From: a virus
Strand: one strand, 5' to 3'
IMG/VR virus record: IMGVR_UViG_3300020451_002162
Location: 1 to 64,000 of that record
DNA: 64,000 nucleotides
The notes beneath the pieces were generated by a model, which saw only the letters and a list, made by a program, of their open reading frames with translations, did not search any database and was not told the DNA's origin. Positions within the stretch are counted from its first letter, which is position 1, and the number at the start of each line of letters is the position of its first letter. Position numbers and translations under genes: made by a program. Shown here in pieces: positions 7,492 to 42,328 of this stretch.

Positions 7492-8762
7492 TACAGCAAT
7501 CCTGTTATCGGTTTAGACCAGCCTTGAGATTCACTATGAGGCCATACTATCCAGCTATTTGGTTTAATCTCTGTCTGAAACTCTCTCCACACTTTACAGT
7601 AACCGTCTGGATCAGTTTTAAGTCTGTGTATTTCGTCTTTATTTGCATCTTGTCTATGAATATCATTACCCTGATCATCTTTAAAAGCCACACACCAAAA
7701 ATCATAATCCTGCAAAGGGACTTGTTCAAAAGATATGTCAATACAATGCCTAAAGATGGAAAGTAAATTACTATAAAATTCTTCATCTGATACTTCGTTA
7801 CTTATGTTAGGAGCTATCTTGTCTTTAGTTTGAGGACTTATGGCTCTTTTACTGAAACACAATCCTGCGTACTTTTCATATTCAAACAAAGTCCTCTCTG
7901 TGCCGAAACCATATTTTCCAAAATCTTCGTCTTGTTTTTCTCCATCCATGCCAAAAAGTTTTCTATTTCTTAGGTGAGATCTATCATTTGTTATATGCCA
8001 GTTATTGTGATCATCCCAGTGTTTAGTTCTTCCTTTTCTAGTATATTCATGCCAACATATGACTTCATTAGGATGGAATAAATCATAACCATGAGTAAAA
8101 GCTCTAGCTGCTATACTAATTTCTTCTCCGTGAAAATACATATAAGGATCATGTCTAACTTCAGTAGCAAATGAACCTAAAGAAAAAGCAAAATGAGCAC
8201 TGTAAAATCTAGCAGGTAAAGGCTTGCTTGAATCATCATGAGCATCAAAATTAGCTGGCAAGAAAAATACAGCACCTTCAGGTATAAACCTATCAAAATT
8301 CATTTTCCAAGGTAATTGTATTCTGGACTCTGGATCATTATCGGGATCAAAACTAGGTATATAGGCAGTAATTAAAGGTTTTTTATAACCGCTATCCTGC
8401 AATCCTTTAATCATATCCTTGAGTTTAGTATCCCAACCCTTCACAAACCTATGATGACTATCTAATTGTAAAGTATAATCTTCATTATCGTATAAAGACT
8501 GAACAGCATTCCTTGCCCAGCAAACCCCTTTTGCTTCTTTATAATTAATGTCTATTATTCTTACTCTTTTATCATCTTTATATTTATCTAGATTATCCCA
8601 TTCGTCTTGCTCGCTGTGCTGCCAAGCTATACCCACATAAATACTATCGGGATTATCTGCATTAGAAAACATATCATCTAATGTAAGTAATAATTGAGGA
8701 TCTCTATAAGACGCTATCTGTACAAATATTGTCTTAGTTTTCTTTTCTCTCTGACTTGTCAT
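7491..8762 (-). CDS. GT60-like GlcNAc transferase (Skp1-Hyp/polypeptide GlcNAc-T family)
   Basis: IFVQIASYRDP, AKGVCWAR, LQLDSHHRF..GWD, FHGEE..AARAFTHGYD, WHEY, YGFGTERT. Confidence 0.8.
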   Translation of the reverse strand: MTSQREKKTKTIFVQIASYRDPQLLLTLDDMFSNADNPDSIYVGIAWQHSEQDEWDNLDKYKDDKRVRIIDINYKEAKGVCWARNAVQSLYDNEDYTLQLDSHHRFVKGWDTKLKDMIKGLQDSGYKKPLITAYIPSFDPDNDPESRIQLPWKMNFDRFIPEGAVFFLPANFDAHDDSSKPLPARFYSAHFAFSLGSFATEVRHDPYMYFHGEEISIAARAFTHGYDLFHPNEVICWHEYTRKGRTKHWDDHNNWHITNDRSHLRNRKLFGMDGEKQDEDFGKYGFGTERTLFEYEKYAGLCFSKRAISPQTKDKIAPNISNEVSDEEFYSNLLSIFRHCIDISFEQVPLQDYDFWCVAFKDDQGNDIHRQDANKDEIHRLKTDPDGYCKVWREFQTEIKPNSWIVWPHSESQGWSKPITGLL

Positions 8763-10362
8763 AATGTTCTGTCCTATTATGGGTTATTGGACTAGCTAAT
8801 AGTATAGCAGGATTAACTTTGTTTTCTTTTGTTAGAGAATAAATATGACTCATCCATGTCTGTTCGTACGGATGATTCCACTTTATGTCCAAAAACATTT
8901 TTTGATTACCTTCTCTACTTATAATATGAGGCCAATTACAATAGTAAATTTCTCCTTCAGCATACGGCACTCTATTGATTTGTTTAATGGCTTTAAAACG
9001 AGTAAATGGTCTTGACTTTATATCTCCAAAATAAAGAAATCTTTTATCTTGTGGCACATTGTGCCAGCTCCATTGTTCAGAATTATTCCCATAAAATTCA
9101 CTGAAGCTCATTTTTAAAAAATCATAATTTTCTTTATCCATTATTTTCACAACGGTTTTTAGTAGGTTCTTGACTTCTTTTCTAAAACCAAAACCACAAT
9201 ATCCTGTAAAATCCAAGAGCATGTCATCTTCAAAGAACATCATGTACTTATCTTTAGATGTTGCGAAATCTTCAGCAGCAAACTGTCTAGCACCACAAAT
9301 GCCCAAATTACCCTTTTTAACTTGTTGGAATCCATATTGATTACAGATATCATTATACTCATCATCATACTGTGATTTAGTACTGTTATTAATAATTATT
9401 TTTTGAGTTTTATTTAAAAAATCTATATCTCTATTTTTGAATGATTCTATTACAGAATTTAATTGCTTGGGAGAATTATATGTATTAATATAAAGTCTTG
9501 TAGTACTAGGTATATTACTATTAATAATTACTGGTTTTTTATAGTTTTTAATATCTTCAAAAAACTTAAAGACTAAACCATTTTCTTCTATGTCAAATAA
9601 TTGTATGTCTTTATTTAGGTTTGCAATAATAGAAAATATACTTTCTTCTGTACCCATATATCCTCTATCTAAAGTGTCATTCAGAAGCTGATAGTATTGT
9701 CCATTTATCGAGGAAATATAGTCTTTTTTTCCTCCAAAAAAACCACCTCTACAAACATGATCAACTTCTTTATCACATATCTTATTCATCTCTTTAATAT
9801 CAAATCCATGAATCTCAGTACTCGTTTTATATGGATATCTTATAAACATAAAAGAATCCACTATATTTTCAAGTTTTTCTATAACTTTATCGTGACTGAA
9901 ATATCCTGGATGTACAGTATTATTTATGCCCGCATCTATCCAATAAAAAAGGTCAGAACCAAAAGTATTCATTATACTGGCATTATGCAATAAAAACATC
10001 TTACTCATGACTACTGGATTGTACATTTGCAGCATGGCTTGTGTGCTACCCGAAAGCCAGCCGACTTGATTTAACCATTTAGAATTTGTTCTTATTTTTT
10101 CAACTTTTTCGCAGAAGGGAAAGAAATCAGTACAAAAATCTTCTATCTCATGTTTTATCCAAAATATTTTATCTGACCTAATTTTAAGTATATGCTGTTT
10201 TATAGATTCTGATGAAAAGACAACTATATTAGTATCTTTAGTAGACTCAAGTAATTTAGATAAATTTTCTAGGTATGTAGAGAAATTCCTAGACCAACCT
10301 TCGTCCAGATCAGATCTTCCTAGATCCCATAGTCCAGTAACTAGGGTTGTTTTAGATGACAT
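8734..10362 (-). CDS. HtrL-like domain fused to a GT-A (GT2-like) domain
   Basis: N-terminal TLVTGLWD..SKMFLLHNA..YWIDAG..GGFFGG..GTEES; C-terminal NLGICGARQ..MFFEDD. Confidence 0.75.
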   Translation of the reverse strand: MSSKTTLVTGLWDLGRSDLDEGWSRNFSTYLENLSKLLESTKDTNIVVFSSESIKQHILKIRSDKIFWIKHEIEDFCTDFFPFCEKVEKIRTNSKWLNQVGWLSGSTQAMLQMYNPVVMSKMFLLHNASIMNTFGSDLFYWIDAGINNTVHPGYFSHDKVIEKLENIVDSFMFIRYPYKTSTEIHGFDIKEMNKICDKEVDHVCRGGFFGGKKDYISSINGQYYQLLNDTLDRGYMGTEESIFSIIANLNKDIQLFDIEENGLVFKFFEDIKNYKKPVIINSNIPSTTRLYINTYNSPKQLNSVIESFKNRDIDFLNKTQKIIINNSTKSQYDDEYNDICNQYGFQQVKKGNLGICGARQFAAEDFATSKDKYMMFFEDDMLLDFTGYCGFGFRKEVKNLLKTVVKIMDKENYDFLKMSFSEFYGNNSEQWSWHNVPQDKRFLYFGDIKSRPFTRFKAIKQINRVPYAEGEIYYCNWPHIISREGNQKMFLDIKWNHPYEQTWMSHIYSLTKENKVNPAILLASPITHNRTEHYDKSERKEN

Positions 10363-10468
10363 ATATGTACTTAGTTAGAGTATTAATCTCCCGGCTCTGC
10401 ATAAATATTAATAATAAATCACAGATAGTCAAGTCAATAAATATGCATATGTTTTTTTTAAATTTATC

Positions 10469-10496
10469 TTGACTTTGCATATCAACTAAATACTAT
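10469..10496 (+). promoter_or_regulatory. putative sigma70 promoter for the pilin gene
   Basis: TTGACT-16 nt-TACTAT; shares CTTGACTTTGCA with the promoter at 18971. Confidence 0.55.
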
Positions 10497-10589
10497 AAAA
10501 ATAGTTATTTTCTTTTACTGAAAAACTTAAAGAAATACAAAGAAGACAATATTTTAAGCTTATTTACCTAATAAGGTGGAGGAATTCTT

Positions 10590-11477
10590 ATGAAAAATAC
10601 GTCACGTAAAGGTTTTACCCTCATCGAACTTCTTGTCGTTATTGCGATTATCGGCGTTCTGGTTGGCTTACTACTTCCAGCTGTTCAACAGGCACGAGAA
10701 GCAGCTCGTCGTAGTTCGTGTGGAAATAAGTTGAAACAACAAGGTTTAGCTGCTCACAACTACGCTGATAAGAATGCAAGTCGTGGAGATAACTTCTTAC
10801 CTAGTGCATTCGGAGTTAATAGTACCGGAGCGACCGTTAGTACCAACCCAATTACGGCTGTCGGTGGTGCCACAGCTGGCGCAAACACAGGCTGGAGTCA
10901 TATCGTAAAAATTCTTCCATTTGGTGAAGAAAATAATCTTTACAATGCCATCAATGGAGCTGGTAATTATGTCGTTCCAACAGCAGCTAATGCAACTGTA
11001 GAGGTTGATTGGCTGATCTGCCCATCATTTGTTGGTACCACAGCTGGCCAAAGTGTTTACAAGGCCAACGTTGGAACCAGTGATGAAGCCGGTGCAAGTG
11101 CTACCGCAACTGGAGCTATCACCGGAAAGACTCTGGATAATAATGGAGGTCTTGGTCTTTTTCAAGATAAGGGTTTTGCATCGTATCGTGATGGTACAAG
11201 TAATACTCTTATGATCGTTGAAGAAAATTTCAATGAAAATTACTGGGAAGGTCATACGAATGTATCAACCTTTGGCCTTGCAACTGGAGCATCCGTCTCA
11301 CCAATTCCAGGAACTGTTTCGCAAGGCTTCCCAAGTTCACCACACGCTGGTGGAGTAAATGGATACTGCCTTGCTGATGGTTCGACTGGGTTTCTGTCTA
11401 ACACCATTAGCAAAGCAACACTTCGAGCCTTATCAACGGCTAATGCTGGCGACACGATAGGTAATGATCGTCCTTAA
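10590..11477 (+). CDS. DUF1559 prepilin-type N-terminal cleavage/methylation protein (Planctomycetota type IV pilin-like)
   Basis: [67 protein letters not shown]; GGAGG RBS; raised GC. Confidence 0.95.
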
Positions 11478-11529
11478 ATATTAATGGTTATTATGAAAAA
11501 TGTAAAGTCTAATAATAAAGAAACAAAAA

Positions 11530-11709
11530 ATGGAAAAAGAAGATAAGAAATATATTAGAAAAACAAAAATAGACAAGAAAAAAAAAGACAAGTACCATAC
11601 TTCGGATGCTATGGATCATAAAGCAAAGGTTCAAAGCAAAAGAGAAAGGCAGGTAGAGATGGAAGAAGATGAATGGGAAAATTGGAATAGGTTTTATAAT
11701 CACAAATGA
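11530..11709 (+). CDS. small charged hypothetical protein (59 aa)
   Basis: MEKEDKKYIRKTKIDKK...EEDEWENWNRFYNHK; ATGA overlap with next gene; below the ORF-track cutoff. Confidence 0.65.
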   Translation: MEKEDKKYIRKTKIDKKKKDKYHTSDAMDHKAKVQSKRERQVEMEEDEWENWNRFYNHK

Positions 11710-11948
11710 AATACATAGAAGAAATAGATGCTGGACAGTGTTTTTCTCATAAAGAAGATAATTTTTTAATGTCTTCAGATTTCAAAAAAAATGGAGACAG
11801 GTTAGGTCTTAGCTTGAAAAATGGAGTCACTCGTTGGTTTGGCCCTTCCGAGACAGTAGAAGTTGTGGTTTTATACACAATAGACCAAGACAGTAATTTA
11901 AAACACATTAGATCAGAGGATGCTGATGATCCTAATAAGAATATCTAA
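11706..11948 (+). CDS. hypothetical protein (small beta-rich)
   Basis: ORF coupled to neighbours. Confidence 0.6.
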   Translation: MKYIEEIDAGQCFSHKEDNFLMSSDFKKNGDRLGLSLKNGVTRWFGPSETVEVVVLYTIDQDSNLKHIRSEDADDPNKNI

Positions 11949-12201
11949 CTTTATAAAATCTTTATTTTTTCACGTATGGTCAGGCTTCCCGAAATGCAGT
12001 AAAGATCAAATTTTAAAAAGATGGAATACATGCTTGGTCTGCGAAGAATTTAATAAAGAATATTCTATTTGCAATATATGTGGATGTAATTTAAATAATA
12101 AAAAAGAGTTCTTCAATAAATTAGCTTGGGCTGATCAAGAATGCCCTGCTGGTAAATGGCCGAAAGAAATTAATAATGAAAATAAAAAAGCAAGAAAATA
12201 A
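11920..12201 (+). CDS. Cys-rich zinc-binding hypothetical protein
   Basis: R..CLVCE..CNICGC..K....ECPAGKW. Confidence 0.65.
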   Translation: MLMILIRISNFIKSLFFHVWSGFPKCSKDQILKRWNTCLVCEEFNKEYSICNICGCNLNNKKEFFNKLAWADQECPAGKWPKEINNENKKARK

Positions 12202-40472: not shown

Positions 40473-41415
40473 AGTTCCAGTATTATTGTGGTTGTATCAT
40501 GTCGATTTATGGCCAGAAATACTGTCTCTATTAATACCAATACAAGACCTTATTGAATTACATATAGGTCTTTATAAAAATAATGAACAAAATTTTATAG
40601 TTGAAGATAGTATAGCAACTATTTTTGATGTATATAATATAACATATCACGACAATATGGGGGGAGATGTCCTCCCTTTTCTTGAGCAGTTGAACAGTCT
40701 AAGCCCTTCTAGATTTAAGCATGATACATTCTTAAAGATACACACTAAAAAAAGTTTATTTGCAGGAAAGATTAATTGGAGAATTATACTTTTACATAAT
40801 CTTATGGGTAGTAGGTCTATTTTTCTAAAAAATTTAGACAAACTTAAAGACAATAAGTGTGGTGCTCTTACATGCTCTAATTTAATTCTGAGTGATATGG
40901 AACATACAAACAAAAGTATTATAGAAGACATATCAGAAAATATACTATCTATTCCATATGAGAAAGTAAAGAATAAAAAATTCTGTGGAGGTAATATGTT
41001 TTTTGGTAAAATCTCTACTTTTCGTTCTTATTTTAATAGTGATACATTATCCTTAATTAGGCCAAAATTAAAAAAAGAAAAAGGCAAAATTAGTGATGTT
41101 AAAAAAGGAACATATGCACACAGTCTAGAAAGACTATTCGGGTATATTGTATTAGATAATAATCAAAAAATAATTCCTTCAGCACTAGAAGCGACCAAGA
41201 TACTTAATCCACTTGCGCAAAACAATAAACTTCATATAATACTATTGTACGATGAGATTTCTTGCTACATTCACGAAGATATCAATGTCTGTGGTAAAAT
41301 TCTATCTCGTTCTGATAAAGCCATAGAGATAGAGTGGTTTCATTTAACCAATCCGGTAATTAAAAAATACAAATATATTTCAAATAATACGCTAGTAGCT
41401 GATGCACAAAAATAG
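40462..41415 (+). CDS. rhamnan synthesis F (RgpF)-like protein
   Basis: LYHVDLW, N.GGDVLPF, LKIHTKKS, FCGGNMF, AHSLERLF. Confidence 0.8.
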   Translation: MKNRVPVLLWLYHVDLWPEILSLLIPIQDLIELHIGLYKNNEQNFIVEDSIATIFDVYNITYHDNMGGDVLPFLEQLNSLSPSRFKHDTFLKIHTKKSLFAGKINWRIILLHNLMGSRSIFLKNLDKLKDNKCGALTCSNLILSDMEHTNKSIIEDISENILSIPYEKVKNKKFCGGNMFFGKISTFRSYFNSDTLSLIRPKLKKEKGKISDVKKGTYAHSLERLFGYIVLDNNQKIIPSALEATKILNPLAQNNKLHIILLYDEISCYIHEDINVCGKILSRSDKAIEIEWFHLTNPVIKKYKYISNNTLVADAQK

Positions 41416-42328
41416 GATATTATTAACAGGTGGCTCAGGCTTTTTGGGTAAACATGTATATAAAAATTTATTAGAGAATAATTACAAAGATATTTATATC
41501 CCCAGAAAAGTAGATTACGACCTAAGAAACTTGTCAAAATGCAATGATTTATTTAGGTCCGTTAACCCAGATACTGTTATCCACTTAGCCGCAACATGTG
41601 GTGGTATAGGCGCTAATATGCGATCTCCCGGTAGGTATTTTTACGATAATATGTCTATGGGTCTAAATATAATAGAGCAAGCTAGATTGAATAATGTTAA
41701 AAAATTCATACTGATTGGTACTGTCTGTGCCTATCCAAAATTGTGCAATATTCCTTTTCAAGAAAAAGATATATGGAAAGGATATCCAGAAGAAACTAAT
41801 GCCCCATACGGAGTAGCGAAAAAATCTTTATTCGTTATGTTGGACGCATATAATAAAGAGTATGGTTTTAATAGTACGATTTTAGTGCCATCAAATCTAT
41901 ATGGTCCCTATGATAATTTTGAAGATCATTCAAGTCACGTTATACCTGCCCTAATTAAAAAAATTGATTATGCAAATAAAAATGGGGAAGACACGGTTGT
42001 TATATGGGGAGATGGTTCTGTAAGTAGAGAATTTCTATATGCAGATCAAGCAGCTAAGGCAATTGTTAAAAGCATAAACGTAAATACAGGACCTAGCCCA
42101 ATTAATCTTGGTTCTGGAGAAGAAATAACCATAAAAAATCTTGTCAATAAACTTGTACATAAAATGAACTTTAATGGCTCAATATCTTGGGATACATCCA
42201 AACCAAACGGACAACCTAGAAGATGTATAAATGCTAATAAGGCTATGTCTTATTTAGGCTGGCAAAATCAAGTAAATATAGACAAAGGACTAGATATGAC
42301 TCTGGAGTGGTATAATAATGACGTATAA
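41402..42328 (+). CDS. fcl: GDP-L-fucose synthase
   Basis: TGGSGFLG, HLAATCGGIGAN, GTVCAYPK, YGVAK, NLYGPYDNF, SHVIPAL, KPNGQPRR. Confidence 0.95.
   Translation: MHKNRILLTGGSGFLGKHVYKNLLENNYKDIYIPRKVDYDLRNLSKCNDLFRSVNPDTVIHLAATCGGIGANMRSPGRYFYDNMSMGLNIIEQARLNNVKKFILIGTVCAYPKLCNIPFQEKDIWKGYPEETNAPYGVAKKSLFVMLDAYNKEYGFNSTILVPSNLYGPYDNFEDHSSHVIPALIKKIDYANKNGEDTVVIWGDGSVSREFLYADQAAKAIVKSINVNTGPSPINLGSGEEITIKNLVNKLVHKMNFNGSISWDTSKPNGQPRRCINANKAMSYLGWQNQVNIDKGLDMTLEWYNNDV

Follow-up and report, generated by a model that had tools for sequence, protein, structure and literature searches.

The window analysed here comprises 64,000 nucleotides (nt) and forms the first 64 kb of the 91.6-kb IMG/VR virus record IMGVR_UViG_3300020451_002162, which was rated 65% complete by CheckV. 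The subject of the analysis is an open reading frame (ORF) at positions 10590-11477 of the plus strand, which encodes a prepilin-type DUF1559 protein of 295 amino acids (aa). The translation revealed a leader at residues 1-8 (MKNTSRKG), a cleavage position at G8/F9, a hydrophobic helix from residue 9 (FTLIELLVV) and a DUF1559 domain at residues 33-273. Its short basic leader with a final Gly (-1), the Phe at +1, the Glu at +5 and the stretch of about 20 hydrophobic residues make up a class III signal. The Pfam search gave a match to PF07596 (DUF1559 / SBP_bac_10) with 101.1 bits (E 1.4e-28, cut-off 23.3) spanning positions 1-265 of the 268 in the profile, and the same family scored 94.2 bits in the genome-wide search. 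The N-terminal methylation family PF07963 (N_methyl) was matched with 34.5 bits against a cut-off of 21.2, and TIGR02532 of NCBIfam with 32.6 bits against 16.3. The LLPAVQxAREAARRxxC motif behind the helix (residues 28-44) and the C-terminal H...DG block (H252, D263 and G264) showed little or no variation across 34 and across 136 aligned members of the family, and the family-conserved residues C144, D201, G202, H252, D263 and G264 are all present in the phage pilin. The spacing from His to Asp-Gly is ten residues, compared to nine in TIGR04294 (prepilin-type H-X9-DG domain), a model absent from the NCBIfam results at E up to 0.01; the phage pilin resembles that family and is not filed under that model. 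The results are in accordance with a preliminary description of the window, which had noted the G/FTLIE cleavage site, the DUF1559 motifs and a contrast in guanine-plus-cytosine (GC) content, had proposed the two Pfam searches and had suggested that the phage captured a planctomycete pilin. The GC content of the gene is 44.9% and that of the window 32.8%.

The location of the gene on a phage was analysed with other assemblies. In the viral contigs L002 (pilin 95% identical) and L003 (91%) the pilin gene lies between the same neighbours as in the window, and L172, a 3.2-kb metagenome contig of 35% GC, carries an 87% identical pilin in the same slot. The neighbouring proteins of L003 and L172 share only 32-67% identity with their counterparts in the window, while the pilin stands at 87-95% across the lineages. 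Both junctions of the gene are bridged by contigs from two other marine metagenome studies with 0-22 mismatches: an X5 contig spans 10107-10891 with zero mismatches, and X3 contigs span 10312-10664 and 11135-11713. As in an auxiliary (moron-type) gene, phage genes thus lie on both sides in independent assemblies (L002, L003, L172 and the bridging contigs). The record encodes a split DnaE-type polymerase, a primase, a DnaB helicase, a UvsX-like recombinase and a ribonucleotide reductase, and this phage-type replication module is common to records of 157-238 kb rated complete, three of seven of which have terminal repeats.

Neither a terminase nor a capsid gene could be recognised in the 91.6-kb record, and PHROG scans of 20 large ORFs (five from beyond the window) showed replication and sugar genes and no clear virion gene. 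Terminase_6N was not found in the records G000, G003 or G008, the last being the 157-kb closest relative rated complete. The lack of a recognised virion gene is attributed to the incompleteness (65%) and novelty of the record, and no conclusion is drawn from it. Two giant ORFs of 2666 aa (L164:8872-16872) and more than 1573 aa (L165:3-4721) were observed on the minus strand beyond the window; they are adjoined by the large ORFs L164:16885-18903, L165:4718-6679 and L165:6709-8322, which gave no PHROG match.

If the assembly were chimeric, or if a piece of a cellular genome or prophage had been filed as viral by mistake, this would account for a gene of 45% GC standing well above the 33% of its contig and for a record devoid of recognised terminase or capsid genes. 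The probability of such an artefact is negligible, as the same neighbours occur in four diverged contigs of different samples, the bridging contigs come from independent studies, the flanking DNA has 31-33% GC compared to 47-48% in the host described below, the third codon positions of the gene have moved towards the phage, and the replication module is that of the larger complete records. Since four diverged lineages share the slot and independent contigs bridge both junctions, a chimeric assembly, on which the preliminary description would have foundered, is excluded for practical purposes.

The origin of the gene was traced by a search of 5.8 billion proteins. The nearest non-phage proteins were hundreds of sequences of 287-288 aa, 84-87% identical over the full length, some of them named from metagenome-assembled genomes (MAGs) of Pirellulales with contigs of up to 3.7 Mb. 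Six species-level MAGs (L004-L009; Pirellulales or Planctomycetaceae, about 3 Mb, 47-48% GC) hold one orthologue each. A tree rooted on L008, the most distant orthologue, placed the phage alleles in one clade (support 88/83) nested among the host orthologues, and two clade members of initially unclear source (P0005 and P0007) were found to be phage-borne in the same slot. This identity and the nested position demonstrate, at the level of sequence, that an ancestor of the phage lineage captured one DUF1559 gene from a marine Pirellulales host, as the preliminary description had supposed for a planctomycete pilin in general; that the host can be named from these comparisons had escaped it. A single capture from the host, after which the gene was inherited vertically in the phage, is the simplest history.

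The neighbourhood of the host gene was compared in the five of the six loci that reach far enough and is conserved in these five species, comprising BamA, HI0933-like, PSCyt/DUF1549/DUF1553 and DUF1501 genes, the pilin gene, a family 2 glycosyltransferase (GT2) gene, a Ser/Thr kinase gene and a gene of an extracytoplasmic function (ECF) sigma factor. None of the other genes of this neighbourhood was found in the window. The similarity of phage and host DNA is limited to 10559-11476, a stretch made up of the coding sequence and the 31 nt of 5' untranslated region (5'UTR) before it, in which the ribosome-binding site lies. In the host, the gene is preceded by a leader of about 190 nt that is almost invariant across species and is closed by a hairpin-plus-T8 terminator of its own; the phage copy lacks the terminator and, save for the last 31 nt, the leader. 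One 3.4-Mb host genome gave 36 DUF1559 matches, and because the orthologue was among the lowest-scoring full-length ones, it is a divergent, short member of the family.

The host leader itself (L007:9805-10000; also L004, L005, L008 and L009) is conserved better than parts of the coding sequence in five species. It shows predicted stem-loops with a few compensatory changes, and in one hairpin UUUACCC pairs with the ribosome-binding site. A search of Rfam brought up no family above noise for this leader, which is described here as a candidate cis-regulatory RNA. Directly after the host orthologue lies the GT2 gene of about 253 aa, which is polyprenol-phosphate sugar synthase-like (L007:10969-11730; also L004, L005, L006, L008 and L009). 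Co-transcription of the host pilin and GT2 genes is unlikely because the pilin gene ends in its own terminator.

The residence of the gene in the phage was analysed from its composition and from the ratio of nonsynonymous to synonymous substitution rates (dN/dS). The GC content at third codon positions (GC3) is 27-29% in the phage copies and 36-39% in the hosts, so that the composition has shifted from the host towards the phage. The whole-gene dN/dS among phage copies is 0.07-0.08 at dS of 0.4-1.1. Outside the loop described below, the ratio is 0.04-0.08 between phage copies compared to 0.07-0.26 between host copies. Nesting in a cellular clade (88/83) and purifying selection (0.04-0.08) are what is expected of an auxiliary gene of host origin. 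Read from the substitution pattern, the phage is shown to have held the pilin gene for long under strong purifying selection, and an intact protein is evidently needed by it.

The differences between phage and host proteins were then located. Over the first 60 residues the two are almost identical, with no difference from residue 8 onward. Positions were counted as phage-specific where every phage allele departs from each of the 121 host-type sequences; all 12 such positions fall within residues 74-99, comprising the substitutions M74F, Q78S, T83V and V88I and an insert of eight residues. They are contained in a hypervariable loop of residues 70-101 (10797-10892, plus strand) right behind the N-terminal helix. 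The insert, GGATAGAN, occupies residues 92-99 (10863-10886, plus strand) and is carried by phage alleles; the 121 host-type sequences all lack it. The placement of all four substitutions within residues 74-99 has p of about 0.005 when positions are weighted by host variability. The L172 lineage carries a different loop with an insert of three residues. Among host species the loop is the most variable part of the protein, with dN/dS mostly at 0.4-1.4 (0.18-1.38 in 13 of 15 pairs) against 0.07-0.26 elsewhere, a noisy estimate from 24 codons. Ser, Thr and Asn are abundant in the loop, and N-x-S/T sites have been gained in the phage alleles at residues 62 and 77. That the phage-specific changes in the alignment are confined to one loop had not been seen in the preliminary description.

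The structure of the protein was predicted using AlphaFold2 with the 136-row alignment. The model had a mean predicted local distance difference test score (pLDDT) of 83.8 and a predicted template modelling score (pTM) of 0.83, and revealed a helix at residues 11-61, a loop of low confidence (pLDDT 55-57) and then a mixed domain with strands. The low confidence fits a flexible loop, as the loop lies directly behind the helix in the model. In solved pilins the segment behind the helix is an exposed loop and is often modified; by likeness to these, the loop of the phage pilin would be exposed. With VIA-align, 25 of the 27 top matches, all of them weak (Z 2.1-4.8), were type IV pilins or pseudopilins, the best being Thermus PilA4 (Z 4.8, over 122 residues of a 125-residue chain), and the type II secretion pseudopilin EpsG was matched with Z 4.3. 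Foldseek aligned the helix only and gave no match at E up to 0.001 against the PDB or against the catalogued viral proteins of BFVD, and a sequence search of the PDB matched the N-terminal helix alone.

The machinery for processing was also searched. A Peptidase_A24 prepilin peptidase is encoded in three of the host MAGs, and neither Peptidase_A24 nor T2SSE (PilB/GspE-type ATPase) gave a match in the phage record, which is 65% complete. For lack of these matches, cleavage and assembly would have to use host proteins. The earlier suggestion that a host peptidase could process the pilin is thereby supported as regards the presence of the enzyme in the host.

The expression signals were analysed in the divergent intergenic region of 228 nt (10363-10590). 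The region holds two back-to-back promoter-like sites whose hexamers are kept in the four diverged phages, and the letters between and beyond both sites are diverged or deleted among them. The rightward site, TTGACT-16-TACTAT at 10469-10496 on the plus strand, matches at 9 of 12 positions and has the pilin as the first gene behind it. Its -35 box and TA-rich -10 box are kept across the four lineages (window, L002, L003 and L172), and the spacer varies. The leftward site, TTGACT-16-TAATAT at 10405-10432 on the minus strand, belongs to a glycosyltransferase operon, and its AGTCAA and TATTAATA blocks are kept in the four lineages. The region contained nine promoter-like sites where shuffled sequences contained 4.6 +/- 2.5, so that a single site is not above chance. 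The preliminary description had given the pilin a sigma70 promoter of its own. The promoter-like site stands, being conserved in four lineages; it would be better described as the promoter of a rightward operon with the pilin as first gene, because a close relative without the pilin gene retains it.

The strong ribosome-binding site claimed earlier was found as the Shine-Dalgarno sequence GGTGGAGGAA at 10575-10584, 5 nt ahead of the ATG. It lies within a host-derived 5'UTR (10559-10589, plus strand) that begins where the homology of phage and host DNA begins and also holds a TTTACC element and a small predicted hairpin, in which 10563-10569 pairs with 10574-10580 and overlaps part of the Shine-Dalgarno site. 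The folding energy of this hairpin was no better than that of shuffled sequences. The 5'UTR TCATTTACC...GGAGGAAT is common to all four phage lineages. No terminator-like site was found downstream of the phage pilin gene. In the marine metatranscriptome library X16, contigs with 0-1 mismatches to the phage allele were found, all within 10777-11022, the host allele being only about 80% identical to it in DNA; missing cover on the gene flanks was not counted as evidence.

Expression from a phage promoter, free of the host's long leader, would also suit a dominant-negative subunit that jams the host pilus or pseudopilus assembly by mimicry, and the N-terminal assembly helix is the same as that of the host. 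Phage proteins that block type IV pili are known. Jamming would not need the globular domain, which is kept whole at dN/dS of 0.04-0.08 with C144, D201, G202, H252, D263 and G264 intact, and such a poison subunit is therefore considered very improbable.

The upstream regions were further compared for a possible role of the gene as a phosphate-starvation helper under host Pho control, an idea to which the DUF1501 gene upstream of the host orthologue, which we take to be alkaline-phosphatase-like, lends some weight. Simple word tests, with no motif model, revealed no 9-mer, direct repeat or motif common to the conserved region upstream of host pstS and the upstream regions of the host and phage DUF1559 genes. 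Direct repeats with 10-12-nt spacing were absent upstream of host pstS and host DUF1559, and the phage upstream region held only A-rich near-repeats. The host promoter has an ordinary -35 TTGACT box and no phosphate-uptake gene lies beside the host orthologue, leaving this explanation extremely unlikely.

The neighbouring genes agree with the earlier placement of the pilin between two divergent glycosylation operons, as glycosyltransferase and sugar genes were found on both sides. On the minus strand to the left, an HtrL/YibB-like putative glycosyltransferase (8734-10362), syntenic in L002, is the first gene of the leftward operon. It is followed by a GT60-like N-acetylglucosamine (GlcNAc) transferase (PF11397; 7491-8762, minus strand), which is a syntenic neighbour in all four phage lineages, and a GT25 glycosyltransferase lies on the same strand. 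On the plus strand to the right are two small ORFs, a 2-oxoglutarate-Fe(II) (2OG-Fe(II)) oxygenase, GT1-like and GT32-like transferases, a methyltransferase, a cytidylyltransferase and an HpcH aldolase. The two small ORFs of 80 and 93 aa overlap (11706-12201, plus strand) and are the downstream neighbours in all four lineages. The 93-aa ORF (11920-12201) has several Cys pairs (CLVCEE...CNICGC...ECPAGKW) and is by appearance a small zinc-binding protein.

The segment 10516-11525 (plus strand) behaves as a cassette. A 1209-nt contig of run X15, from another marine sample and with flanks about 92% identical, joins position 10515 to 11526 with 24 other letters between; it reads as a natural close relative that lacks the pilin gene and retains the promoter. 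At the cassette edges only a weak A-rich similarity was found in place of repeats.

This gene order raises the question of whether the pilin is a target or carrier of the phage glycosylation genes, its Ser/Thr/Asn-rich loop being decorated so as to give a glycan-masked fibre. Apart from the two flanking operons, rich in glycosyltransferase and sugar-nucleotide genes, the proposal can draw on the GT60-like gene that adjoins in all four lineages, on the GT2 gene conserved after the host orthologue in six of six host loci, on the N-x-S/T sites gained at residues 62 and 77, and on the relative G008, in which a DUF1559 gene lies between two epimerase-like genes. Set against it, the host gene has its own terminator and is not co-transcribed with GT2; DUF1559 genes lie among replication genes in other related phages, so the link to sugar genes is not general; and the relative without the pilin keeps the flanking genes on both sides of the gap, including the HtrL/YibB-like gene. 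The proposal, which is compatible with both of the functional explanations weighed below, appears quite improbable.

The occurrence of DUF1559 in other viruses was surveyed, as had been suggested earlier. In IMG/VR, 82 stretches matched a degenerate DNA pattern for PAVQxAREAARR; nearly all of them encode prepilins of the form G/AFTL[IV]E, and most lie on contigs of 30-39% GC. Besides the present gene, over 70 low-GC stretches of IMG/VR carry DUF1559 genes of other types, at other positions. The viral genes form at least seven multi-member families with Pfam-confirmed representatives (contigs L010-L089). In IMGVR_UViG_3300024324_000009, two DUF1559 genes of different families were observed (L071, L083). 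Many such contigs are related to the phage by their replication genes, with ribonucleotide reductase up to 89%, DnaB 65-71%, DnaE about 66% and UvsX about 70% identical. The DUF1559 genes of the related phages sit at other loci, several of them inside the replication module. G008, whose DnaE is 92% identical, has a different DUF1559 type (L163:8816-9775) between two genes resembling the nucleotide-sugar epimerase gene of the window (41402-42328). Going by these matches, DUF1559 genes are widespread in related uncultured phages, which had been missed earlier. When three of the other viral families were compared with the same host MAGs, the first showed about 60% identity to another paralogue, the second showed 40% identity and the third gave no match at E up to 1e-30; these families are separate captures, some probably from other hosts. 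In 50,697 deposited phage genomes no copy of DUF1559 was found, and the papers searched included none on DUF1559 in phages. The family as a whole is very large, with 48,298 clusters at 50% identity matching DUF1559 at E up to 1e-10 and with about 36 to 100 copies per planctomycete genome.

The spread of the family over related phages bears on a plain alternative, namely that the pilin is an auxiliary gene which keeps up or boosts a native host function, such as envelope uptake or pseudopilus secretion, as host expression falls, in the manner of cyanophage psbA or pstS, the loop changes being neutral by-products. The other paralogue types in many related phages look as if a general activity of the family were useful. 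In Tuwongella, DUF1559 proteins are expressed at the membrane, 25 of 91 members having been detected in membrane fractions (PMC8567305), and two of the 68 paralogues of Planctopirus are essential (PMC10632474). The purifying selection over the full length, at least as strong as in the hosts, the almost identical N-terminal 60 residues and the retained host ribosome-binding site are in accordance with this explanation. It accounts poorly for fixed differences that are significantly clustered in one loop and for an insert present in no host sequence; no metabolic bottleneck can be named for it; and the gene is missing in the close relative and in most related phage records. Taken together, such upkeep of a host function is somewhat unlikely, and it ranks second to the explanation favoured below.

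The explanation we favour, held tentatively and with rather less than even confidence, is that the captured pilin variant enters the host pilin pathway, changes an exposed loop and lowers the adsorption of further phages. Beyond the established identity, origin and selection of the gene, we infer its processing, assembly and exclusion effect as follows. The pilin would be transcribed from the conserved promoter, of the sigma-70 type read by the host RNA polymerase, free of the host's long leader, and its product would be inserted in the inner membrane as a prepilin, which the host prepilin peptidase would cut after Gly8. Given the near-identity of the first 60 residues, which is complete from residue 8, the phage pilin may then be assembled along the pilin or pseudopilin pathway that the host orthologue uses. 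The infected cell would carry a loop-variant of an envelope component, with the four substitutions and the eight-residue insert. The purpose of the altered surface feature would be that further phages adsorb less, which would give superinfection exclusion or avoid the loss of progeny on infected cells.

Several observations weigh against this favoured explanation. The gene is dispensable to the phage, since the close relative lacks the pilin and DUF1559 genes of any kind turned up in only 3 of the 36 related phage records. The purifying selection over the full length fits the need for the native function equally well. The loop is the least constrained part, so drift could explain part of the concentration of changes there, and within the sub-lineage of the window, L002 and L003 it is conserved. 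The structural matches are weak, with Z below 5. The X16 contigs are a hint, indicating presence in an RNA library, and cannot prove transcription, expression level or transcript ends. The literature found on DUF1559 treats its function as unknown and holds no experiment on any member, and fibre formation, surface exposure and a role as phage receptor are suppositions for these proteins.

A more specific form of the idea takes the host DUF1559 orthologue to be an exposed fibre or pseudopilus subunit which is the receptor of this phage lineage. Its loop would be an arms-race surface, and the long-loop version of the phage would replace that of the host and block adsorption. This receptor reading is considered unlikely. 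If true, part of the DUF1559 expansion in Planctomycetota would have been driven by phage pressure, and the phage-borne copies would mark which paralogues are receptors.

The significance of the favoured explanation, and of the captured gene itself, lies in the family concerned, as DUF1559 is one of the largest protein families without known function. With 86% identity to one particular host orthologue and a single differing loop, the phage copy points experiments to a definite paralogue and a definite surface. Through the gene, large marine phages of an uncultured group are also linked to marine Pirellulales.

The phage pilin can be compared with its source and with known systems. With the 287-aa Pirellulales orthologue (L004, L005 and L007) it shares 84-87% identity, near-identical first 60 residues, the same ribosome-binding site and the same family residues. 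It differs in residing in a phage of 33% GC, in its shifted GC3, in the eight-residue insert and four fixed substitutions of the loop, and in the loss of the conserved leader of about 190 nt and of the terminator. The cyanophage genes psbA and pstS are host-derived, under purifying selection, sporadic among relatives and of phage-shifted composition, and have known metabolic roles. The phage pilin is like them in host origin, selection, sporadic distribution and composition shift, but belongs to the envelope proteins, has no known role and shows a lineage-specific change in a surface loop. The Pseudomonas phage proteins Tip and Aqs1 are reportedly small inhibitors of the PilB ATPase, which shut down the type IV pilus and give superinfection exclusion. 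The proposed outcome here is alike, a changed pilus-type structure with less adsorption of further phages; Tip and Aqs1, however, are not pilin homologues, and no relation in sequence or fold is expected.

The closest parallel in mechanism is offered by the pilins PilA1 and PilA2 of the archaeal virus SNJ2, which were captured from the host, use the host PilB/PilC and become the dominant pili; the virus has no assembly proteins, and related viruses captured such genes repeatedly (PMC12426801). Entry of the phage pilin into the host pathway is proposed here as it was shown for SNJ2. Both cases concern a virus-borne pilin captured from the host that needs, or here would need, host assembly proteins. 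SNJ2 is a temperate archaeal pleolipovirus with archaeal type IV pilins, whose filaments and phenotypes were demonstrated (PMC12426801), whereas the present case is a large bacterial phage with a member of the DUF1559 family. It thereby provides a bacterial case for comparison with the virus-encoded pilins of archaea.

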